A stretch of DNA of 64,000 bases. Source: an uncultured Bacteriovoracaceae bacterium. GTDB taxonomy: Bacteria; Bdellovibrionota; Bacteriovoracia; Bacteriovoracales; Bacteriovoracaceae. Both the position numbers and the translations under genes were made by a program. The notes below the pieces were generated by a model, which was not told the DNA's origin, made no database searches, and saw only the letters and a program-made list of their open reading frames with translations. Where the stretch lies: NCBI GenBank assembly GCA_964012805.1, contig CAXGUD010000008.1:32001-96000 (forward strand). The letters run 5' to 3'. Positions 54,723 through 64,000 of this stretch are shown here, piece after piece. The stretch's first letter is position 1. Every line of letters begins with the position of its first letter.

Positions 54723-56063
54723 CTAATAGATATACTCAAGAGGGAAGTTAAAATCATTTTGTTTAACCGATGAAAAAGAGTCTAGCTTTTCTAATAACTC
54801 AGTACTTTCTGCGAGGCTAGCTCCATCAAAAAGCAGAATGTTTTCTGAGTTTTCAATGTTTTGTTGAATTAAGTTCATTAGAAAAGTTTTTATTTGAGGA
54901 TCTATCCCATTTTTTTTATGTTTATTTTTTTTAAATTTAGCATATTTTGATTTTGCATATTGAAGCAGCTTCTTCTTATGGCCTGGATATCTGAATATAA
55001 GCCCTGACTTTTTATGTAGTGAAAATAATGGATAGACTATAAATTGTTCGGGAACCAAATGTCTTATGACTAAGAACTTACCTTTAAGTTCATTTTGTGG
55101 GCGTTTTTTTGAGCTTTCGTTAAGAAATTCGTTTTCTAATAGATTTAAAATTTCAGTTTTGAGCTCATTTTTAAACTTTGAAAATATACTAGAAAAGGAA
55201 ACAATGGCTTCAAACAACGTTCCAAAAAGTTTTATCGTGATGACTTCCCATTCTAGGGTATTAAGTTTCTCGATGAGAAGGTCTTGCTCTTTTGGTGAGT
55301 TTGCACAAGGGATGGAGAAAAGAATGATTCCATTTTTTCCCTTAATGCTAATAAGAAAGGGCATTTTAATCTCTGACAAATCTTTTTTTATCTGATTTCT
55401 AGGTATCTGTTTTTTTATATGGATTTTATCAAGTTCAAATTTATTTCTAGGGTAATAAAGGTGATTTACTTTCGTTATTCCCTTTTTAATAAAGATGTTG
55501 AGGAAATGAATTAATAGTTCTGCTGTTGCGAGAGCATCATCTAAAGCTCTGTGGGCTTTTGCATGTTTAATCGCGAAGATTCGGCTCATATAATTGAGGT
55601 TCGAGTTCAGTAGGTTTGGTATAAGATTTTTGGTCATTAAATTTGTACATATACTTCGGTTTTTCCTTTCCGGTAAATTAAGTCTCCGTAAAACTGAATT
55701 GAAGAAAGGGACATCAAAAGAAGTATTGTGTGCCACAAGAACTGAGTTACCCATAAAGTCTAGGATATCTTGAATAACTTCATGTATTTTTGGGCAACTT
55801 TCGACATCACTTTGACTTATAGAGGTTAGTTTTTGGATAAAGTCCGGTATTTTAATTTCAGGGTTTATGAGAAAGTGCTTTTTTTTAATAATTTTTAGGT
55901 TTTGTATTTTAATTAAGCCAATCTCTATTATTTTATCGTGGTTATGGTTGCCACCAGTAGTTTCTAAATCAAAAACACAGAAGTCGATCCCTTTTAATAA
56001 GCTTATTGAATGTTCTTCTAGGACAGCTGGGTGGTGGTCTTCAAAAATTCTTTGTTTTTCCAT
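54723..56063 (-). CDS. DEDDh 3'-5' exonuclease (DnaQ-like) with long C-terminal extension
   Basis: VFDLETTG, VAHNTSFD, HRALDDA. Confidence 0.88.
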   Translation of the reverse strand: MEKQRIFEDHHPAVLEEHSISLLKGIDFCVFDLETTGGNHNHDKIIEIGLIKIQNLKIIKKKHFLINPEIKIPDFIQKLTSISQSDVESCPKIHEVIQDILDFMGNSVLVAHNTSFDVPFFNSVLRRLNLPERKNRSICTNLMTKNLIPNLLNSNLNYMSRIFAIKHAKAHRALDDALATAELLIHFLNIFIKKGITKVNHLYYPRNKFELDKIHIKKQIPRNQIKKDLSEIKMPFLISIKGKNGIILFSIPCANSPKEQDLLIEKLNTLEWEVITIKLFGTLFEAIVSFSSIFSKFKNELKTEILNLLENEFLNESSKKRPQNELKGKFLVIRHLVPEQFIVYPLFSLHKKSGLIFRYPGHKKKLLQYAKSKYAKFKKNKHKKNGIDPQIKTFLMNLIQQNIENSENILLFDGASLAESTELLEKLDSFSSVKQNDFNFPLEYIY

Positions 56064-56138
56064 ATTGAATATGTCTGCATGTTACAATTCTTAAGTGATA
56101 TTTTACAAGCTTCTTAACAAAAATTGGATAGGGAAGTA

Positions 56139-56540
56139 TTATTCCTTTGAGTGATATGTGTCTGGTGTATATGCTAAGGGCATTAAATCCTTAAATTTCA
56201 TAGTTGTTTCCTGCCCTTTTTCATCACCAATGATGACCTCTAGATTTTCGTCGGCAAACTCACTCATTACTTGTCTGCAGAAACCACAGGGTGGCCAACC
56301 TTGCTTTGTATAGATGTAGACCTTTTTAATTCTTTGTTCACCTTCAGAAATGGCTTTCCAAATAGCAACTCTTTCAGCGCAAACAGTTCCACCAAAGCTG
56401 CTATTTTCAACATTACAGCCGTAAAAGTAACTCCCTGAGCTTGTTAGAATGGCACTTCCAACTTTGGCCTTGGAGTAGGGAGAGTGAGAGTTTTGAGATG
56501 CTTTAATTGCTAATTCACGGAGCTTTGAGTTTTGATCCAT
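56139..56540 (-). CDS. cdd: Cytidine deaminase
   Basis: SPYS, GCNVEN, CAERVA, PCGFCRQ; ATG 56540. Confidence 0.95.
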   Translation of the reverse strand: MDQNSKLRELAIKASQNSHSPYSKAKVGSAILTSSGSYFYGCNVENSSFGGTVCAERVAIWKAISEGEQRIKKVYIYTKQGWPPCGFCRQVMSEFADENLEVIIGDEKGQETTMKFKDLMPLAYTPDTYHSKE

Positions 56541-56547
56541 AACTGGT

Positions 56548-57372
56548 TTAATCCTCACTGCCAATCTTTTTGATTGCATCTGCAAGAAGCGAGCTAAAGA
56601 AGTTCATAACTTTTAAAGCCTGTTCTTTAATGTCTTCGTGTTTGAGAGTTTCGTCTTTAATTCCTGCAGCCATATTTGTTATGCAGGAAAGCCCACCTAC
56701 CTTGACCCCAAAGTGATTTGCTGCAATTGACTCAGGTACGGTACTCATACCAACCATGTCTGCACCAAGAATCCTGAGCATTTTAATTTCTGATGGCGTT
56801 TCGTAAGTTGGGCCAAGTAAGCCAGCATAGACTCCAGATTTTAAATTTGAGCCCATATCTCTAGCAGACTCAAGGAAAGCTTTTTTAATATCAGGATGAT
56901 AGGCGTGTGACATATCAGGAAACCTTGGCCCTAATTCTGATTTGTTAGGTCCAATAAGAGGGTTTCTGCCAGTTAGATTTATATGGTCATCAATCAATAT
57001 AATGTCACCAGGGTTATAATCCAGGTTTATTCCGCCAGCAGCATTTGTAAGAATTAGGTTCTCTATTCCTAAGGTTGCAAGAACTCTAGTGGAAAAGACA
57101 ACTTCTTCCATGCTATAGCCTTCATAAGCATGGATTCTACCCTGAAGAACCGCTATTTCAACTTCTTCAATATTACCCAATATAAGGCGACCCTCGTGAC
57201 CCTCTACATTTGGGCTTTTGAAATTAGGAACCTCTGAGTATGGAATAACCTTTGGGTTTTCAATTTTATCTACAAAAGCACCTAAACCTGAGCCCAGAAC
57301 AACTCCTACCTTAGGAGAAGTTGAACTAAGTGATTGGATATATTTAGCTGATTGTTCTAATTTTTCATACAT
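56548..57372 (-). CDS. punA: Purine nucleoside phosphorylase (trimeric type)
   Basis: VLGSGLG, GRIHAYEG, TNAAGG, GPTYET, VGMSTVPE; TAATG coupling to pdp. Confidence 0.94.
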   Translation of the reverse strand: MYEKLEQSAKYIQSLSSTSPKVGVVLGSGLGAFVDKIENPKVIPYSEVPNFKSPNVEGHEGRLILGNIEEVEIAVLQGRIHAYEGYSMEEVVFSTRVLATLGIENLILTNAAGGINLDYNPGDIILIDDHINLTGRNPLIGPNKSELGPRFPDMSHAYHPDIKKAFLESARDMGSNLKSGVYAGLLGPTYETPSEIKMLRILGADMVGMSTVPESIAANHFGVKVGGLSCITNMAAGIKDETLKHEDIKEQALKVMNFFSSLLADAIKKIGSED

Positions 57373-58772
57373 TAGTTGTGGCTCCACTTAACAGAGGTTT
57401 CGTATATAAGAGGACGTTTTTTGAGAGGAACTTTGGGCTTTATTTTAATATCTTGTTGAGCAAGTTCTTCTTTAAGGGTGTTCGCGAGTTCGCTTTGAGT
57501 TTCATGGTGGTAAATTGTGAGGATTGGCTCTCCAGCTTTAACTTTGTCACCTATTTTTTTGTGAAATATAAAACCTACACTTGGGTCTACCAAGTCTTCC
57601 TTTACCAACCTGCCTCCTCCTAACTTTACACAATGGAGGCCAATTTTTTTTGTATCCATTGAGTGGATGTAGCCACTCTTCATGGAGAGAACCTCTGTTC
57701 TCTGGGTAGCAAGATTAAACTTTGAGTAATCTTCTACAAAGGAGGCATCGCCTCCCTGTGTTTTTAAAAGGTCGACAAACTTTTTTAATGCAGATCCATC
57801 TTTGAGTGCATTTTTGGCCATTTTTATTCCGGCTTTGTGTGTTTTAGCTAGCCCCGCAATATGAATCATACCTCCTGCTAATTCTAAAGAGACTTTTGTT
57901 AGGTCTTTAGGGCCATTTCCTTTTAAAGTTTCAATACTTTCTATTATTTCAAGGCTATTACCGACGGCCATGCCCAGAGGTTCTGACATGTCTGTAATCA
58001 TAGTCATAATATTTTTGTTAAACCTCAGTGCAGTATCTTGAAGGCTTTTGGCCAGCTTGCGGGCCTTGCCAAGGGTCGTTAGGAAGGCGCCTTGACCTGT
58101 CTTAATGTCCATAACGATGCCACTGGCTCCTTCTGCTAGTTTTTTGCTCATGATGGAAGCTGTTATAAGGGGGATGCAATCTATTGTTGCTGTTACATCT
58201 CTAAGCCCATAAATGATTTTGTCTGCTGGAGCAATGTCTTGGGTTTGCCCCATGAGAACAAGGTTATTAGCTTCAAGGATTTTTTTAAACTCATCAATAG
58301 ATAAACTAGTTTTAAAGCCTGGAATAGACTCAATCTTATCAGTTGTTCCCCCTGTGTGGCCTAAGCCTCTCCCAGAGATCATAGGAACTTTAACTCCACA
58401 AGCTGCTGCAATTGGTGCGAGGATAAAAGAGGTCTTGTCTCCAACTCCTCCCGTAGAGTGCTTGTCTATGACCCTTTGTTCGGGAAAGTTTAAAACTTTT
58501 CCTGAATAAAGCATGGCATCTGTAAGTGCACTTGTTTCGTCTGTATTGAAACCGTTAATATGAATTGCCATTAGAAGTGCAGTCATTTGGTAATCTGCAA
58601 CCTCGCCGGATAGCAAGCCATTAATGAACCATTTAATTTCCTGAGAGGAAAGTTGCTTACCTTGACTTTTTTTTTGGAGTATCGTGTAAGCAGAAAAGTC
58701 TAATTGACTTGCTTTTTGTTCTTCTATTTTATTTTTTGAAGACGGTTTTTTTTTAACCTGATTTTCTAACAT
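57372..58772 (-). CDS. pdp: Pyrimidine-nucleoside / thymidine phosphorylase
   Basis: DKHSTGGVGDK, SGRGLGHTGGT, SIMSKKLAEG. Confidence 0.95.
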   Translation of the reverse strand: MLENQVKKKPSSKNKIEEQKASQLDFSAYTILQKKSQGKQLSSQEIKWFINGLLSGEVADYQMTALLMAIHINGFNTDETSALTDAMLYSGKVLNFPEQRVIDKHSTGGVGDKTSFILAPIAAACGVKVPMISGRGLGHTGGTTDKIESIPGFKTSLSIDEFKKILEANNLVLMGQTQDIAPADKIIYGLRDVTATIDCIPLITASIMSKKLAEGASGIVMDIKTGQGAFLTTLGKARKLAKSLQDTALRFNKNIMTMITDMSEPLGMAVGNSLEIIESIETLKGNGPKDLTKVSLELAGGMIHIAGLAKTHKAGIKMAKNALKDGSALKKFVDLLKTQGGDASFVEDYSKFNLATQRTEVLSMKSGYIHSMDTKKIGLHCVKLGGGRLVKEDLVDPSVGFIFHKKIGDKVKAGEPILTIYHHETQSELANTLKEELAQQDIKIKPKVPLKKRPLIYETSVKWSHN

Positions 58773-58940
58773 AAAGTTTACCTGTTTTAACCAATTGGAT
58801 CAAAGCCTTCCGTCACAATGCCCAATGCTTTTAAAAAGGTCCACCATGATATTCTTAATTCTGATGAGTTGTAAATATGAAATGACTTTAATAAGCTATT
58901 ACTTTCAGGAAGATAGGAAACAATTAAAAATATTGAGGTA

Positions 58941-59399
58941 ATGGTCATGAACAAACTTTGGCAGAAAATGTGGAGAATGACGTTTTGTTTTTTTATTTTT
59001 TGCTCCTTTCTGCTACCTAACTCTAATCAAGGGTTTGCTCAGGAAGGTGGCAGCACGGGTGTTTTAGGAGATTCTTTAAGGGACCTTTATACGGTAGCAG
59101 GAGTTGGAGTTGCAGGGTCAGTCTTGGGACTTTCCACGCTTTCATTTGTGGAGGAGCCAGGAGAAAACTTAAAAAATATTGTTACGGGAGGGGCTATCGG
59201 AATTATTTTAGGGGTTGGAGTCGTCGCTTGGAAACATGCATCAAGAAGTAAAGACGCATATGATACATCGGAAACTAAAAGTCCTGATAACCCTATTAAG
59301 AAAGACTTCTTCGCTGGAAGTGAGCTTTTTTCTAAGTCAAATACTAAAAAAGGTCTTGCTAGTTTAGCTCCTATGGTTCGGTATAATATTCACTTTTAA
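58941..59399 (+). CDS. Small exported/membrane protein with Gly-rich hairpin
   Basis: Signal peptide (GFA-Q), two Gly-rich hydrophobic helices, C-terminal Phe. Confidence 0.7.
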   Translation: MVMNKLWQKMWRMTFCFFIFCSFLLPNSNQGFAQEGGSTGVLGDSLRDLYTVAGVGVAGSVLGLSTLSFVEEPGENLKNIVTGGAIGIILGVGVVAWKHASRSKDAYDTSETKSPDNPIKKDFFAGSELFSKSNTKKGLASLAPMVRYNIHF

Positions 59400-59554
59400 C
59401 GGACTTAAAAGTCCAAAAAATCATTGGCTTATAAACATATCATATTCCATTTAAAGAAAACTTTGTGTTGACCATTATCTTGATTTTAGGGGCTGGACAT
59501 TATATGGATAAATGCCCAAATTTTAGGGGTAATGGATTTTTTTAGGAGGATGGT

Positions 59555-60790
59555 GTGCTGCAAGAAAGAATTGTTTCCTTTATAGGTTTACTTGTCATGG
59601 TTGGAATAGCTTACCTACTCAGCGACTCTAAGGAAAAAGTGAATAAAAAGACGATTCTAACTGGAATTGGTTTACAACTTCTTTTTGGGTTTTTGATCCT
59701 TAAAACTCCTTGGGGAAAAAGTTCATTTGAATGGATTAAACAATTCTTTGTTCAAATTCTAGACTTTACTAACGCAGGTTCAGACTTTGTGTTTGGAGGC
59801 TTAAAGGATTTCCAGAAGGTCGGGTTTGTTTTTGCCACTTTTGTTCTTCCTACTATCATTTTCATGTCAGCATTAATGTCAGTTCTCTATCATATTGGGA
59901 TCATGCAGCTTCTGATTAAGGGAGTTGCTTGGGTAATGGTACGTGTTATGGGGACCTCAGGAGCCGAATCTCTTGCCGCAGCCGCTAATATCTTTGCAGG
60001 TCAAACCGAAGCACCTCTGGTTGTTAAACCCTACCTTTCTAAAATGACAAGATCTGAGCTTATGGCCTTAATGACAGGAGGAATGGCTACTGTTGCTGGT
60101 GGTGTTCTTGCAGCTTACGTTGGAATGGGGATTGATGCAGGTCACCTTCTTGCTGCATCTGTTATGTCCGCGCCAGCTGCATTGGTTTGTGCTAAGTTGC
60201 TTGTTCCTGAAACCGAAAAGTCTGTAACCAAAGGCGATGTGAGTTTTCAATTGCCGAAAACATCGACGAACATAATTGATGCTGCAGCGACAGGTGCCTC
60301 TGAAGGTTTGACCCTTGCTCTTAATGTTGCAGCGATGTTGCTTGCCTTTATAGCTTTAATAGCACTTTGCAATGGTGTTCTTGGCTGGGTAGGGAGTTGG
60401 GTTGGTTATCCTAATGTAACAATAGAATTTCTTTTAGGTTATTTATTTGCTCCAGTTGCCTGGCTATTGGGAGTTCCCTGGAATTGGGATGAATGTTTGA
60501 AAGTTGGAACTTTGTTAGGTCAAAAGCTAGTTTTGAATGAGTTCGTTGCCTATACTGGGCTGCAAAAAATGATCAATACACCGGGTGGCCTTTCTGAAAG
60601 ATCTATCAATATTAGTATTTATGCTCTTTGCGGTTTTGCAAATTTCAGTTCCATTGCTATACAGGTTGGTGGAATAGGTTCATTAGCTCCTGATAGAAGA
60701 AAAGAGTTTGCTAAACTTGGAATGAAGTGCCTCTTAGGTGGCACTCTTGCATGCTTGATGACTGCTTGTATTGCTGGGATAATGATCTAA
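59555..60790 (+). CDS. nupC: NupC/CNT concentrative nucleoside transporter
   Basis: [30 protein letters not shown]. Confidence 0.95.
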
Positions 60791-60851: not shown

Positions 60852-62438
60852 ATGGGAAAAGAGCTACTTTTAAATCAAACATTAAATGAGTGTAGAGCAG
60901 CTCTTTTGGATAGTGGAGAAATTCTTGACTACCTTATGGAAAGGCATAGGGAAAGTGTTGATAATCATCCATCGGTGGGAAATATCTACAGAGGCAGAGT
61001 TTTAAGAGTCTTACCTGGCATGCAATCTGCTTTTGTCGATATAGGTTATGAAAAAGCAGCGTTTTTGTATGTGGATGATGCCTATATCCCTACTCTACAA
61101 GAGCAGAGGGAGATGGCCGAATTAAGTAAAAAGAATCTAGAGGAGGAAGGCTCTAACCAAATAGGCGAAATTATTCCTGACGAGTTAAGCACTCTGGGTG
61201 AATCCGTGAATATGAGGTTCAGGCCTGAGGCCGCAATAGAAACATTTCTAAAAGAAGGCCAAGAAATTATTGTTCAAATAGCTAAGGAGCCGATTTCCAC
61301 AAAGGGCCCTCGTATTACGAGACATATAACTCTTGCAGGTAGGCATGTGGTCTTTATGCCTTATATTGAGCATACTGGCGTTTCTAGAAGAATTGAAAGT
61401 GAAGATGAAAGGGAAAGATTAAAAGAGATTCTTGATAATATAAGACCCGAGGGGAAAGGAATAATTGCAAGAACAGCAGCGGAGGGCCAAAGCTCCAAAA
61501 CTCTTAGAGCTGATTTCAATATGTTGGTTAAAATCTGGAAAGAAGTTGGGAGGAAAGCTGAAAAGGCAAAAGCTCCTTACCTCGCTTATCAAGACTTAAA
61601 CTTTATTCAAAGAGTTTTAAGAGATATTACTGATGAAGACGTCCATCAAATAGTTGTAGACACTAAAGATAACCTTAAAGAAGTTGAAAAATTTATATCA
61701 AAATTTCTTCCTTCCATGAGAGGTAAAACGAGGTTATATGAAGGAGATGCTCCTATCTTTGAGCATTATGGGATAGACCTTGAAATTGAGCGAGGTCTTT
61801 CTAATAAAGTTTTCCTTCGCTCTGGAGGATCTTTAAATATAGATCAAACTGAAGCCCTAGTCTCTATTGATGTAAATACAGGGAAGTACATAGGTAGAAA
61901 GACTCTCGAGGATACGATTCTCAAGACAAACTTGGAAGCTGTCAAAGAGATCGCTTATCAACTTCGCTTAAGAAACTGTGGTGGTATCATTATTATTGAT
62001 TTCATCGATATGGAAAAAGAGGAGAATAGGTTTGCAGTATATTCTGCCCTTTTGGAAGCTTTAAAAAAAGACCGGGCCAAAACAAACGTTCTTCCTATCT
62101 CAGGTCTAGGCTTAGTGGAGATGACAAGAAAAAGGACGAGAGACACCTTAACAAGAGTTATGTGTGAACCTTGCCCTTATTGTGAAGGCACGGGAAGAGT
62201 AAAATCTACTCTTACTGTTTGTTACGAACTTATTAGAGAGTTAACAAAACTGCTTAGAAAAAATAAAAACTGTAAGAAAGTTTATATTTATGCGCATCCT
62301 GAAGTCACGGCAAGGCTCTGCGGTGATGACCTTGATATTATTGACACCTTGGAAGAGAGGTTTGGCACAGCGTTAATAATCAGGTCTGAGAATAATTATC
62401 ATGTTGAGCAATATGAAATCTTTTCGAGAGAATATTAG
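60852..62438 (+). CDS. rng: Ribonuclease G (Rne/Rng family)
   Basis: GNIYRGRV..VLPGMQSAFVDIG, IDVNTG, IIDFIDM, CPYCEGTG; no long RNase E tail. Confidence 0.94.
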   Translation: MGKELLLNQTLNECRAALLDSGEILDYLMERHRESVDNHPSVGNIYRGRVLRVLPGMQSAFVDIGYEKAAFLYVDDAYIPTLQEQREMAELSKKNLEEEGSNQIGEIIPDELSTLGESVNMRFRPEAAIETFLKEGQEIIVQIAKEPISTKGPRITRHITLAGRHVVFMPYIEHTGVSRRIESEDERERLKEILDNIRPEGKGIIARTAAEGQSSKTLRADFNMLVKIWKEVGRKAEKAKAPYLAYQDLNFIQRVLRDITDEDVHQIVVDTKDNLKEVEKFISKFLPSMRGKTRLYEGDAPIFEHYGIDLEIERGLSNKVFLRSGGSLNIDQTEALVSIDVNTGKYIGRKTLEDTILKTNLEAVKEIAYQLRLRNCGGIIIIDFIDMEKEENRFAVYSALLEALKKDRAKTNVLPISGLGLVEMTRKRTRDTLTRVMCEPCPYCEGTGRVKSTLTVCYELIRELTKLLRKNKNCKKVYIYAHPEVTARLCGDDLDIIDTLEERFGTALIIRSENNYHVEQYEIFSREY

Positions 62439-62547
62439 TCTTTTTTAACCCTTTATCCTTAGTTTTTGATTGCTGCTCCCTTTAAATCTGAGAAAAAGAA
62501 TGCTAAGTTACACAGGCTATTTGCAAATTTAATGCTTAGCGTTGTAA

Positions 62548-62604
62548 TAACTCGCTCTTTCCTAATAATGGGGAAGAGCTCAATTGTAAGCCAGGAGTTA
62601 AACC
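62548..62604 (+). promoter_or_regulatory. Candidate S6:S18 ribosomal-protein leader RNA
   Basis: TAACTC/GAGTTA pairing covers the SD; inner stem GCTCTTTCC/GGGAAGAGC; unpaired CCA just before GGAG. Confidence 0.7.
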
Positions 62605-63240
62605 ATGATTTACGAATTGGCCTTAGTGGCGAAAGCTGAATTACCAGAGAATGAGTTAGAAGCTCTTTCAGAAATGGTAAAAGACGTCCTTAAAGAAGGA
62701 TCTGGAGAACTTTTTATAGAAGATGATTGGGGTAAATTGAACCTCGGTCAACCAACTTCTAATGGAGTTCGAAGAGGTTTCTTTAAGTACTTTATTTTCA
62801 AATTGGATCCTCAGACAAACAAAGAGTTAAACAGAAGAATCCTCATTAACGAGGGTATTTTGAAGTCACTTCTTGTTAAGCTTGGGGAGACAAAGGAACA
62901 AGATCAAATTATCAAAGCTTATAAAACACCTTATTCTAAAAAGTATAAGGGTAGCGCAACTTCTCCTTCTAGTACTGAAGAAGGTCAAGGCGGAGGAGAC
63001 CTCGAGAAAGATAAGAAAAGATTCGCTAGAAGAAAGTCTTGTTGGTTTACTGCTAAGAAAATTAAAGCAGATTGGAAAGATCCAACAACATACTCTTGGC
63101 TTATTAACGAATTTGGTAAAATCTCACCTGCACGAGTTACTGGTGTAAGCAGAAGACATCAAAGAATTGTTAATAGAGCTATCAAAAGAGCAAGACAAAT
63201 TGGTATGGTAAGTCACCTATCCAATAGATTAGCTGAATAG
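62605..63240 (+). CDS. rpsF-rpsR: Fused ribosomal protein S6-S18
   Basis: S6-like N-terminus (YEL...DDWG...EL.R...INE.IL) in frame with S18 (RRKSCWF, DWKD, EFGKISPARVTG, HQR..AIKRARQIG). Confidence 0.92.
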   Translation: MIYELALVAKAELPENELEALSEMVKDVLKEGSGELFIEDDWGKLNLGQPTSNGVRRGFFKYFIFKLDPQTNKELNRRILINEGILKSLLVKLGETKEQDQIIKAYKTPYSKKYKGSATSPSSTEEGQGGGDLEKDKKRFARRKSCWFTAKKIKADWKDPTTYSWLINEFGKISPARVTGVSRRHQRIVNRAIKRARQIGMVSHLSNRLAE

Positions 63241-63263
63241 TAATTAAGAGAGACTTATTTCAG

Positions 63264-64000
63264 ATGTCGATTGAAAAAGATAATACAGACGGAGTAGAGA
63301 ATAAAGGAAACCCTAAGAAGTTGGAAAAGCTTTTTATTTTAGGTTTTTTCTCTGTTCTTTTAGCAGGAACACCATTGATTTCTCAAATTTTTGGTGCTTT
63401 TTTGCCCGTTCCGCTGTGCATGGTTTTCTTGATTTATGGAAAGAGAGCAGGGAGTCTTTTTGCTGCTGTAATAACAGCGGTTCTTCTTTTTCTACACTCT
63501 TCCACGAAGGTAACTATACCTCCTGTACCACTCATGTTGTATGGGCTGTGTTTTTCTCTCGTTATAGCTGAATTTGTTAATAGAAGAGTCCATCCTATCA
63601 GAGGGTTTCTTATAGGCGGTTTTTCACTGTTCGCAATATTGGCCTCATTTCTTTTTTTTAGCGAATTCTTTACTGATTTTTCTATTAGAGGTGAAGTTGA
63701 AAAGAATGTGATGAACTTTGCTGAGAGTTTTAAGAAGGGGCCAGGCGCCGAGGCATTATCCCAAGGGGGAGAAGGTGCTAGGCGAATTCAAGATATCGTT
63801 GATAAACCTGAGGTCTACGTCAATGAAGTTATGAATTGGATTCCATCTGCTATCTTTGCGGTTTTTTTCCTTAGCTGGTGGACTAACTTCTATCTTGTTT
63901 TAAGAAATGATTCTGTTTGGCGTTCTTCTGGCGAGGATTATCCTTTTTCCCTTGATGAATTCGTAAAGTTTAGGGTGCCAGATTTCTGTATATGGATTTT
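63264..64000 (+). CDS. DUF2232/YybS-like membrane protein, 3' truncated by the window
   Basis: Hand-translated hydrophobic ORF (MSIEKDN...FLPVPL...YGKR); DUF2232 commonly follows rpsR. Confidence 0.65.
   Translation, partial: MSIEKDNTDGVENKGNPKKLEKLFILGFFSVLLAGTPLISQIFGAFLPVPLCMVFLIYGKRAGSLFAAVITAVLLFLHSSTKVTIPPVPLMLYGLCFSLVIAEFVNRRVHPIRGFLIGGFSLFAILASFLFFSEFFTDFSIRGEVEKNVMNFAESFKKGPGAEALSQGGEGARRIQDIVDKPEVYVNEVMNWIPSAIFAVFFLSWWTNFYLVLRNDSVWRSSGEDYPFSLDEFVKFRVPDFCIWI

Follow-up and report, generated by a model that had tools for sequence, protein, structure and literature searches.

A sole-copy gene for a single-chain S6-S18 ribosomal protein in Bacteriovoracia, a class in which fused and split forms alternate

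The window, the whole 64,000-nucleotide stretch of DNA analysed here, carries one open reading frame that encodes ribosomal proteins S6 and S18 as a single polypeptide. The two proteins, bS6 and bS18, are the products of rpsF and rpsR and are normally separate chains that pair. With a probability of about 0.8, the fused gene is the sole source of both in the cell and its product acts as an ordinary S6:S18 unit, binding the 16S platform and repressing its own synthesis through the mRNA leader. What surprises most is the alternation of fused and split forms over the tree of the class Bacteriovoracia; fusion itself recurs elsewhere. Repeated switching, a link to the S18 zinc motif and a retained leader lift the case slightly above a plain gene fusion. 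The gene, its parts and its neighbours are arranged as follows.

60852..62438, + strand: RNase E/G family gene, upstream neighbour (Pfam; in the same place in many relatives, both fused and split)
62605..63240, + strand: fused rpsF-rpsR gene, 211 aa, product P0001 (translation, Pfam, genome search)
62605..62886, + strand: bS6 domain, diverged, aa 1-94, Pfam match 3-92 (Pfam, NCBIfam, fold match to solved bS6 chains)
62887..62967, + strand: first part of the linker, probably the old S6 C-terminal tail, aa 95-121 (K104, Y106, K107 and P109 conserved; predicted to be ordered, with a helix at 96-105)
62968..62997, + strand: flexible joint, likely fusion junction, aa 122-131 (pLDDT below 50; length and sequence vary)
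62998..63021, + strand: last part of the linker, DLEKDKKR, probably what ended the former N-terminal tail of S18, aa 132-139 (predicted helix 133-143)
63022..63237, + strand: bS18 domain, aa 140-211 (Pfam, NCBIfam, alignment to PDB chains)
63264..64000, + strand: DUF2232 membrane protein gene, downstream, leaving the window (Pfam; followed by rplI, encoding L9, and dnaB in the genome)

Both domains were recovered well above their Pfam cut-offs, S6 (PF01250) at aa 3-92 with 55.7 bits against 27 and S18 (PF01084) at aa 151-201 with 62.8 bits against 21, so that the domain scan proposed in an earlier sequence-only reading came out positive for both. The NCBIfam S18 model TIGR00165 also scored above its cut-off (59.5 against 38.75 bits). 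The S6 equivalog TIGR00166 reached 33.2 bits, under its cut-off of 42.9, which indicates that the S6 part has diverged, as that reading had claimed. Its description of the rest of the gene was equally accurate. The linker measures 45 aa between the profile ends, against an estimate of about 45, and includes SATSPSSTEEGQGGG; C146, within SCWF, is the sole Cys of the 211-aa protein and GVSRRHQR is found in the translation. The reported lack of an in-frame ATG ahead of S18 extends to GTG and TTG, none of the three occurring at aa 95-145. Likewise, no ssb lies between the domains, both SSB matches of the genome being located on other contigs. A six-frame search of all contigs of the window's genome (completeness 100%, contamination 1.79%) returned the fused frame as the only S6 and the only S18 match, and the suggested search for other rpsF or rpsR copies therefore found none. 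Because it is the sole copy, the chain is presumably incorporated into the 30S platform, where it probably functions as the S6-S18 pair usually does.

Database relatives share this architecture: both Pfam domains were present in 119 of the best 120 of 549 relatives, and the nearest named records belong to Halobacteriovoraceae, Bacteriovoracales and Bacteriovorax metagenome-assembled genomes. Public names for these relatives are S18, S6 or "ribosomal protein S18/ribosomal protein S6". The expectation that such proteins would be annotated as only S6 or only S18 was thus borne out in part, since both single names occur but some records name both. Marker-gene and annotation pipelines that assign only one of the names will score the partner as missing. 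No published account of an S6-S18 fusion was found in the literature searched, a scope outside which most subscription papers lie, and a term search of a ribosomal-gene survey (bioRxiv 10.1101/2021.01.31.429008) returned no passage on such a fusion in its main text, the supplements of which may bear on the matter. The protein is a real variant of a well-known pair, apparently unstudied, for which automatic names already give both domains in some cases.

The gene order is rne/rng, fusion, DUF2232, rplI, dnaB, and the part downstream of the S6-S18 locus is arranged alike in fused and split relatives. The L9 gene just past the window (L279:2305-2910, on G000:C8) encodes 202 aa, extending about 55 residues past the Pfam C-terminal domain, and L9 frames are about equally long in other class members. 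Further upstream, we take the minus-strand frames at 54723-59555 to encode, judging from motifs, 3'-5' exonuclease-, cytidine deaminase-, and purine and pyrimidine nucleoside phosphorylase-like proteins; the frame adjoining this run at 59555-60790 (+) presumably encodes a NupC-like transporter, a name that is also motif-based.

An AlphaFold2 model of the whole chain, built on 148 sequences, reached a pTM of 0.81 and a mean pLDDT of 85.8, with values below 50 only at aa 122-131. Its S6 part matched the bS6 fold with Z 13.9 and an rmsd of 1.0 over 93 residues. Longer segments including the tail overlaid solved bS6 chains, namely residues 1-116 on Flavobacterium johnsoniae bS6 2-108 (7jil_k; Z 13.7, rmsd 2.2) and S6 plus tail (residues 1-116 to 1-122) on 6yw5_FF (Z 14.0, rmsd 2.1) and 9hqv_Bc (Z 14.5, rmsd 2.1), and the overlaid chains are those bearing C-terminal extensions. 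Moreover, S6 of the split relatives ends with the same YKxP tail that starts the linker, and the end of the linker corresponds to the D.DKDRR(MF) segment (about aa 132-145) in the stand-alone S18 tails of these relatives. Conservation was pronounced at aa 95-117; at aa 118-132 the top-residue frequency was 0.29 with 32% gaps, and no conserved motif was detected in the joint. The overlay on extended bS6 chains together with the tail matches to split relatives suggests that the tether is likely built of two pre-existing tails meeting at a floppy point. No fused S6-S18 chain was present among the 60 PDB sequence matches listed (57-110 aa or shorter) or among the top 50 fold matches of the model.

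The distribution of the fusion, which the sequence-only reading had proposed to survey across Bacteriovoracia, proved wide. An S18 match was detected in 226 of 238 class genomes and in all 146 that are at least 90% complete. In 215 of the 226 the S18 frame is at least 175 aa long; both domains were located in one frame at all 93 long-frame loci checked, the other 122 fused calls being made from frame length only. Linkers in the class measure 27-47 aa. The 11 short frames comprise eight two-gene loci, in which each gene has its own stop and ATG (G037, G114-G117, G123, G139 and G140), two loci at contig edges, and G130. No second rpsF or rpsR copy was found in the split genomes G115, G117, G123 and G140 or in G130. 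In the rest of the phylum, none of the 121 genomes sampled was scored as fused; S18 frames did not exceed 161 aa among 151 of 154 matches listed, except for one of 222 aa in G321, and S6 was absent from the S18 frame at all 12 outgroup loci inspected, that of G321 included. The proposed lineage-specific covalent heterodimer therefore stands as a single frame in sole copy in most of the class, but is strictly lineage-specific neither within it, where eight genomes are split, nor outside it, where fusions also occur.

Two genomes stand apart. G237 (L101), 0.9 Mb and 96% complete, alone represents the sister family. Its S6-S18 gene is fused through a linker of 27 aa, the shortest of all, and the interval from there to rplI contains no DUF2232 match. 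In G130, whose sister genome G043 carries a fusion, the linker of the sole S6-S18 locus is interrupted by a single in-frame TAA (L096:4799-4801, -), and S18 has no ATG, GTG or TTG start. This TAA reflects either an assembly error or stop readthrough; two metagenome scans contained no other assembly of the locus.

Within the class, the fused state is tied to the S18 zinc motif. The window's S18 keeps only C146 and H185 of C-x2-C...C-x2-H, in agreement with the loss of zinc binding suggested earlier. Cys2 and Cys3 are missing from all 93 fused loci and from every one of the 236 fused database proteins that could be scored out of 239, a set that overlaps with the loci; a search seeded with zinc-positive S18 likewise gave no fused class protein that keeps them. 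Cys1 is retained in 93/93 fused loci and the His in 53/93. The full motif is present in six of the eight split genomes, which represent only about three lineages, and in the outgroups G242 and G318. Exceptions are the split G139 and G140, which lack the Cys residues, and the fused P0303 from outside the class, which keeps C-x2-C and C-x2-H. P0264, on one contig without context, is an S18 of the class type that stands alone and has an N-terminal tail of its own; it lacks Cys2 and Cys3 and possibly represents another split lineage. According to PMC11791143, the CX2CXnCX2H motif of S18 is virtually absent in Pseudomonadota, and bS6m and bS18m of human mitoribosomes share a metal cluster, evidence that the metal site of S18 is within reach of bS6. 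A Cys-poor S18 is ordinary in itself, and what deserves attention is its tie to the fused state within the class.

To place the two states on a species tree, 24 ribosomal-cluster proteins plus RpoB were combined (41 taxa, 5175 columns; G037, G116, G139 and G138 lacked markers), the runs on this large set being fast searches. Split genomes nested among fused ones. The fused G237 was outermost and the split G123 lay near the base with weak support; the split G140 was sister to the fused G224/G178/G057 (SH-aLRT 100), and the split G114/G115/G117 were sister to the window's fused group (97.6), within nodes of 100 and 99.1. All tested topologies with one fused clade or with basal zinc-split genomes were rejected by the AU test (p <=1.2e-5), and relocating G140 out gave p 0.004. 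A site-mixture model on 24 taxa agreed, again rejecting one fused clade. With a 1979-column RpoB/RpoC/L12 set, the AU test rejected neither one fused clade at the level of the main family (p 0.055) nor basal zinc-split genomes (p 0.34 and 0.12). RpoB trees put split genomes among fused ones, RpoB alone joining G123 with G114/G115/G117; the RpoB-only trees and the 1979-column set left the order of events unsettled. The S6+S18 gene tree united all split forms, weakly (bootstrap 41). Altogether, rejection of one fused clade implies, at the level of these alignments, that the fused or split state has switched several times in the class. Among the marker genes, rpoB of G035 (C1:224605-228667) and rplB of G318 (C4:859164-859827) are fragmented with stops, likely through assembly indel errors.

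As to the direction of the switches, a hand count gave at least six events for fusion only and three to four for one fusion plus two to three fissions. Repeated fusion by deletion is the reading we favour, at roughly even odds, because the split loci show a longer gap between the YKxP and first-Cys anchors (182-300 nt, versus 66-114 nt in 91 fused loci), long S18 tails (44-67 aa) that resemble those of the outgroups, and the outgroup zinc motif. The path would start with loss of ssb from between the genes, rendering rpsF and rpsR adjacent; an in-frame deletion of about 100-200 nt could then take out the stop codon of S6 together with the spacer and the greater part of the long tail of S18. The resulting fusion would fix a 1:1 ratio and tether S18 to its folding partner, and the tether likely rendered the S18 zinc site dispensable. 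Deletion would achieve fusion in one step and fission would have to rebuild spacer, tail and motif, which also argues for fusion. A bolder version, with at least six independent fusions in the class, decay of the S18 zinc site each time and the tether replacing zinc as the stabiliser of S18, is tentative and falls short of even odds. Were it true, the class would offer a replicated natural experiment in turning a heterodimer into a zinc-free chain and a one-protein repressor of its own mRNA.

The closest competitor, which we regard as doubtful, is one fusion at the class root, undone in a few lineages through a new stop, spacer and start, the zinc motif being regained or kept. It needs the fewest events (three to four) and agrees with the fused state of the outermost member G237, with the GLTPK stretch that G140 has in common with its fused sisters and with the retention of Cys1 and often His in fused forms, from which two substitutions would restore the motif. 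However, each fission would call for a gain of about 100-200 nt with a new SD and ATG and for the rebuilding of a long, low-complexity, outgroup-like S18 tail, and the full motif occurs in no fused class member among the same 93 loci and 236 proteins. In-place replacement of rpsF-rpsR by homologous recombination among class members, with few fusions needed, is less likely still. It would explain why the gene tree groups split forms that the species tree scatters and why markers conflict over the place of G114/G115/G117, but support in the gene tree is weak (41-74), ancestral residues in common could alone draw the split forms together, and split and fused loci have the same neighbours, with no second copy in the five genomes searched (four split and G130).

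Upstream of the gene, the following elements were delimited.

62501-62509, + strand: possible extended -10 promoter, weak (by eye; outside the promoter-scan calls)
Near 62515-62522, + strand: possible transcript start, weak (RNA contigs start at 62515 and 62522)
62551..62597, + strand: rpsF leader of S6S18CBM type (two-helix hairpin plus unpaired CCA)
62551-53 with 62595-97, + strand: leader helix H1, CUC pairing with GAG inside the SD (fold prediction)
62554-62 with 62571-79, + strand: leader helix H2 (covariation)
62591-93, + strand: unpaired CCA beside the SD (S6S18CBM definition)

The S6S18CBM is described in PMC3854524 as a hairpin that contains the SD within the 3' arm and is accompanied by an adjoining unpaired CCR, the bases of which are read by S18 Lys60 and Arg63. 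In the window, the hairpin folds with z = -2.7. CC precedes the SD in 87/90 fused loci, and 80/90 passed the full two-helix test, compared to a mean of 20.5 and a maximum of 32 in shuffles. Four of nine passed among the eight split loci and G130, G114-G117 and the truncated G037 failing. In a covariation analysis of 57 loci, chosen out of the 80 already passing the motif test, 92.3% of cells pair and the stems contain 150 two-sided changes, versus 47.5 +/- 5.8 in shuffled and at most 69 in slid alignments. All of these changes fall in H2, and the substitutions in H1 are one-sided. An Rfam scan of 62300-63400 returned seven weak chance matches, the rpsF leader family not among them, and Rfam may lack this family. 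The promoter scan called two sites against 2.2 expected and left the extended -10 candidate uncalled.

On the protein side, K194 and R197 of the fused S18 align to the CCR-reading K60 and R63, as counted on the printed PDB alignment; across 148 sequences R197 is invariant and K194 reaches at least 90%. In Escherichia coli, repression of the leader requires both S6 and S18 (PMC4647458). Since repression is known in E. coli only, we infer by analogy that the single chain, when in excess, would repress its own translation through the leader. G114-G117 (L027, L030, L094 and L095; two genera) are split and zinc-positive and lack the CCR leader that their fused relatives retain. G116 and G117 further contain a Cys within the S6 tail (YKCP).

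A precursor cleaved in the joint, or S18 made from an internal start, would place two chains in the ribosome. The joint is flexible and exposed in the model, and 57/93 fused loci have an in-frame ATG, GTG or TTG somewhere in the linker. Nevertheless, an SD-like 4-mer precedes such a start in only 11/93, at scattered places, the window has no such start, and the joint shows no conserved motif, all of which makes two chains a decidedly unlikely outcome. A conserved internal S18 start as such was rejected because these 11 have no common position.

The sequence-only reading had further suggested that the fusion might alter initiation. SD use in the genome speaks against this: a 4-mer was found at -16 to -4 in 43% of 1651 long ORFs, whereas a control position gave 6%; G is most frequent at -11 to -9, and the fused gene itself is preceded by a strong SD. 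The 16S CCR and a canonical anti-SD are intact in the relatives G088 and G178; searches of the assemblies of the window's genome, G140 and G115 returned no 16S. Normal SD use leaves altered initiation unsupported, and an SD-blind ribosome of Bacteroidetes type was rejected on the 43% versus 6%. That the linker reshapes the platform and hides the anti-SD, as the Bacteroidetes bS6 extension does, is highly improbable on these grounds, even though the overlay of model residues 1-116 on F. johnsoniae bS6 takes in the C-terminal extension of the latter, which touches the 16S 3' end there (PMC7797042). Translation start in these ribosomes is apparently unchanged by the fusion.

The frame itself, 211 codons with no internal stop in the + strand translation of 62605-63240, was confirmed on contigs of two DNA runs. 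One from run X3 spans 62417-63572 without gaps and differs only at 62526, which lies outside the gene, and one from run X8 spans 62887-63243 with two substitutions, silent at G116 and G131A in effect; one of these DNA runs may be the window's own source sample. The stop or frameshift in the linker that was to be looked for is absent from both. An assembly error that took out a stop codon can be dismissed, as contigs from two public DNA runs cross the linker in frame and most class genomes are fused. RNA contigs from two runs of one study cover the gene in parts; they lack 62979-63024, and none bridges the whole linker into S18, so that they prove nothing about the state of the chain.

Fusions also occur outside the class. 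When 1.84 billion representatives of 50% identity clusters were searched with a profile, 41 of the 150 proteins listed matched both domain profiles. After ten class-type proteins, three with overlapping envelopes, two with partial S6 and three apparent frameshift read-throughs were set aside, at least 23 proteins remained in which one frame encodes a complete S6 followed by a canonical S18. At 90% identity, 14 of the 17 that were looked up have a cluster to themselves; P0346 lies within a nine-member cluster bearing Gemmatimonadota names. ESM Atlas added two S6+S18 clusters with 55 and 61 members (scores below 0.9), in which Absconditibacteriota and Pseudomonadota are the commonest phyla, with taxa known for few members. 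These proteins (168-266 aa) have the same architecture and domain order as the class fusions, but unrelated linkers and a canonical DYK-type S18, which suggests that they are likely of independent origin. Most are single sequences without context, and part of them may be assembly errors.

In whole-genome searches, the class profile at 1e-18 returned no fusion in 251 genomes each of the phyla of G363 and G360, a search that had no positive control and does not establish absence, and an outgroup-S18 search for longer proteins, too insensitive for outside fusions, gave two matches among 29 candidates. In the two genomes that the profile matched in the phylum of G360, G815 and G797 (L277 and L278), S6 ends in TAA and the S18 ATG follows four codons on in the same frame; these adjacent genes are one step from fusion.

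Because the class has cultured members, this natural S6-S18 chain without a second copy makes it possible to test whether the heterodimer step of 30S assembly needs two chains, and also whether the two-protein sensing of the rpsF leader requires them. Furthermore, the locus is fused and zinc-free in some relatives and split and zinc-binding in others, which provides a direct test of whether a tether can replace structural zinc.

Compared to the canonical bS6:bS18 heterodimer, of which PDB 1G1X (S15-S6-S18-rRNA) is an example, the domains, their order and folds, the CCR-reading Lys/Arg and the downstream rplI are the same; the difference lies in one gene product, in sole copy, with a 27-47-aa linker. 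With respect to the C+ and C- forms of bS18, the fused S18 is of the zinc-free type, as are the best-matching solved bS18 chains, but there is no paralog to swap, and within the class the loss follows the fused state. The anti-SD-sequestering platform of Bacteroidetes (bS6 extension, bS18 and bS21; PMC7797042) has in common with the present case an ordered bS6 extension with a similar predicted path and bS21, which is present in the genome; unlike there, SD sequences are widely used here. Operons with rpsR straight after rpsF strongly tend to lack the S6S18CBM according to PMC3854524; the class, which keeps the motif in most of its fused loci, is an exception to this trend, and the split G114-G117 are without it. 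The leader resembles the known S6S18CBM in the SD within the 3' arm of an irregular hairpin, the unpaired CCR and the compensatory changes, and differs in that its effector would be one polypeptide.
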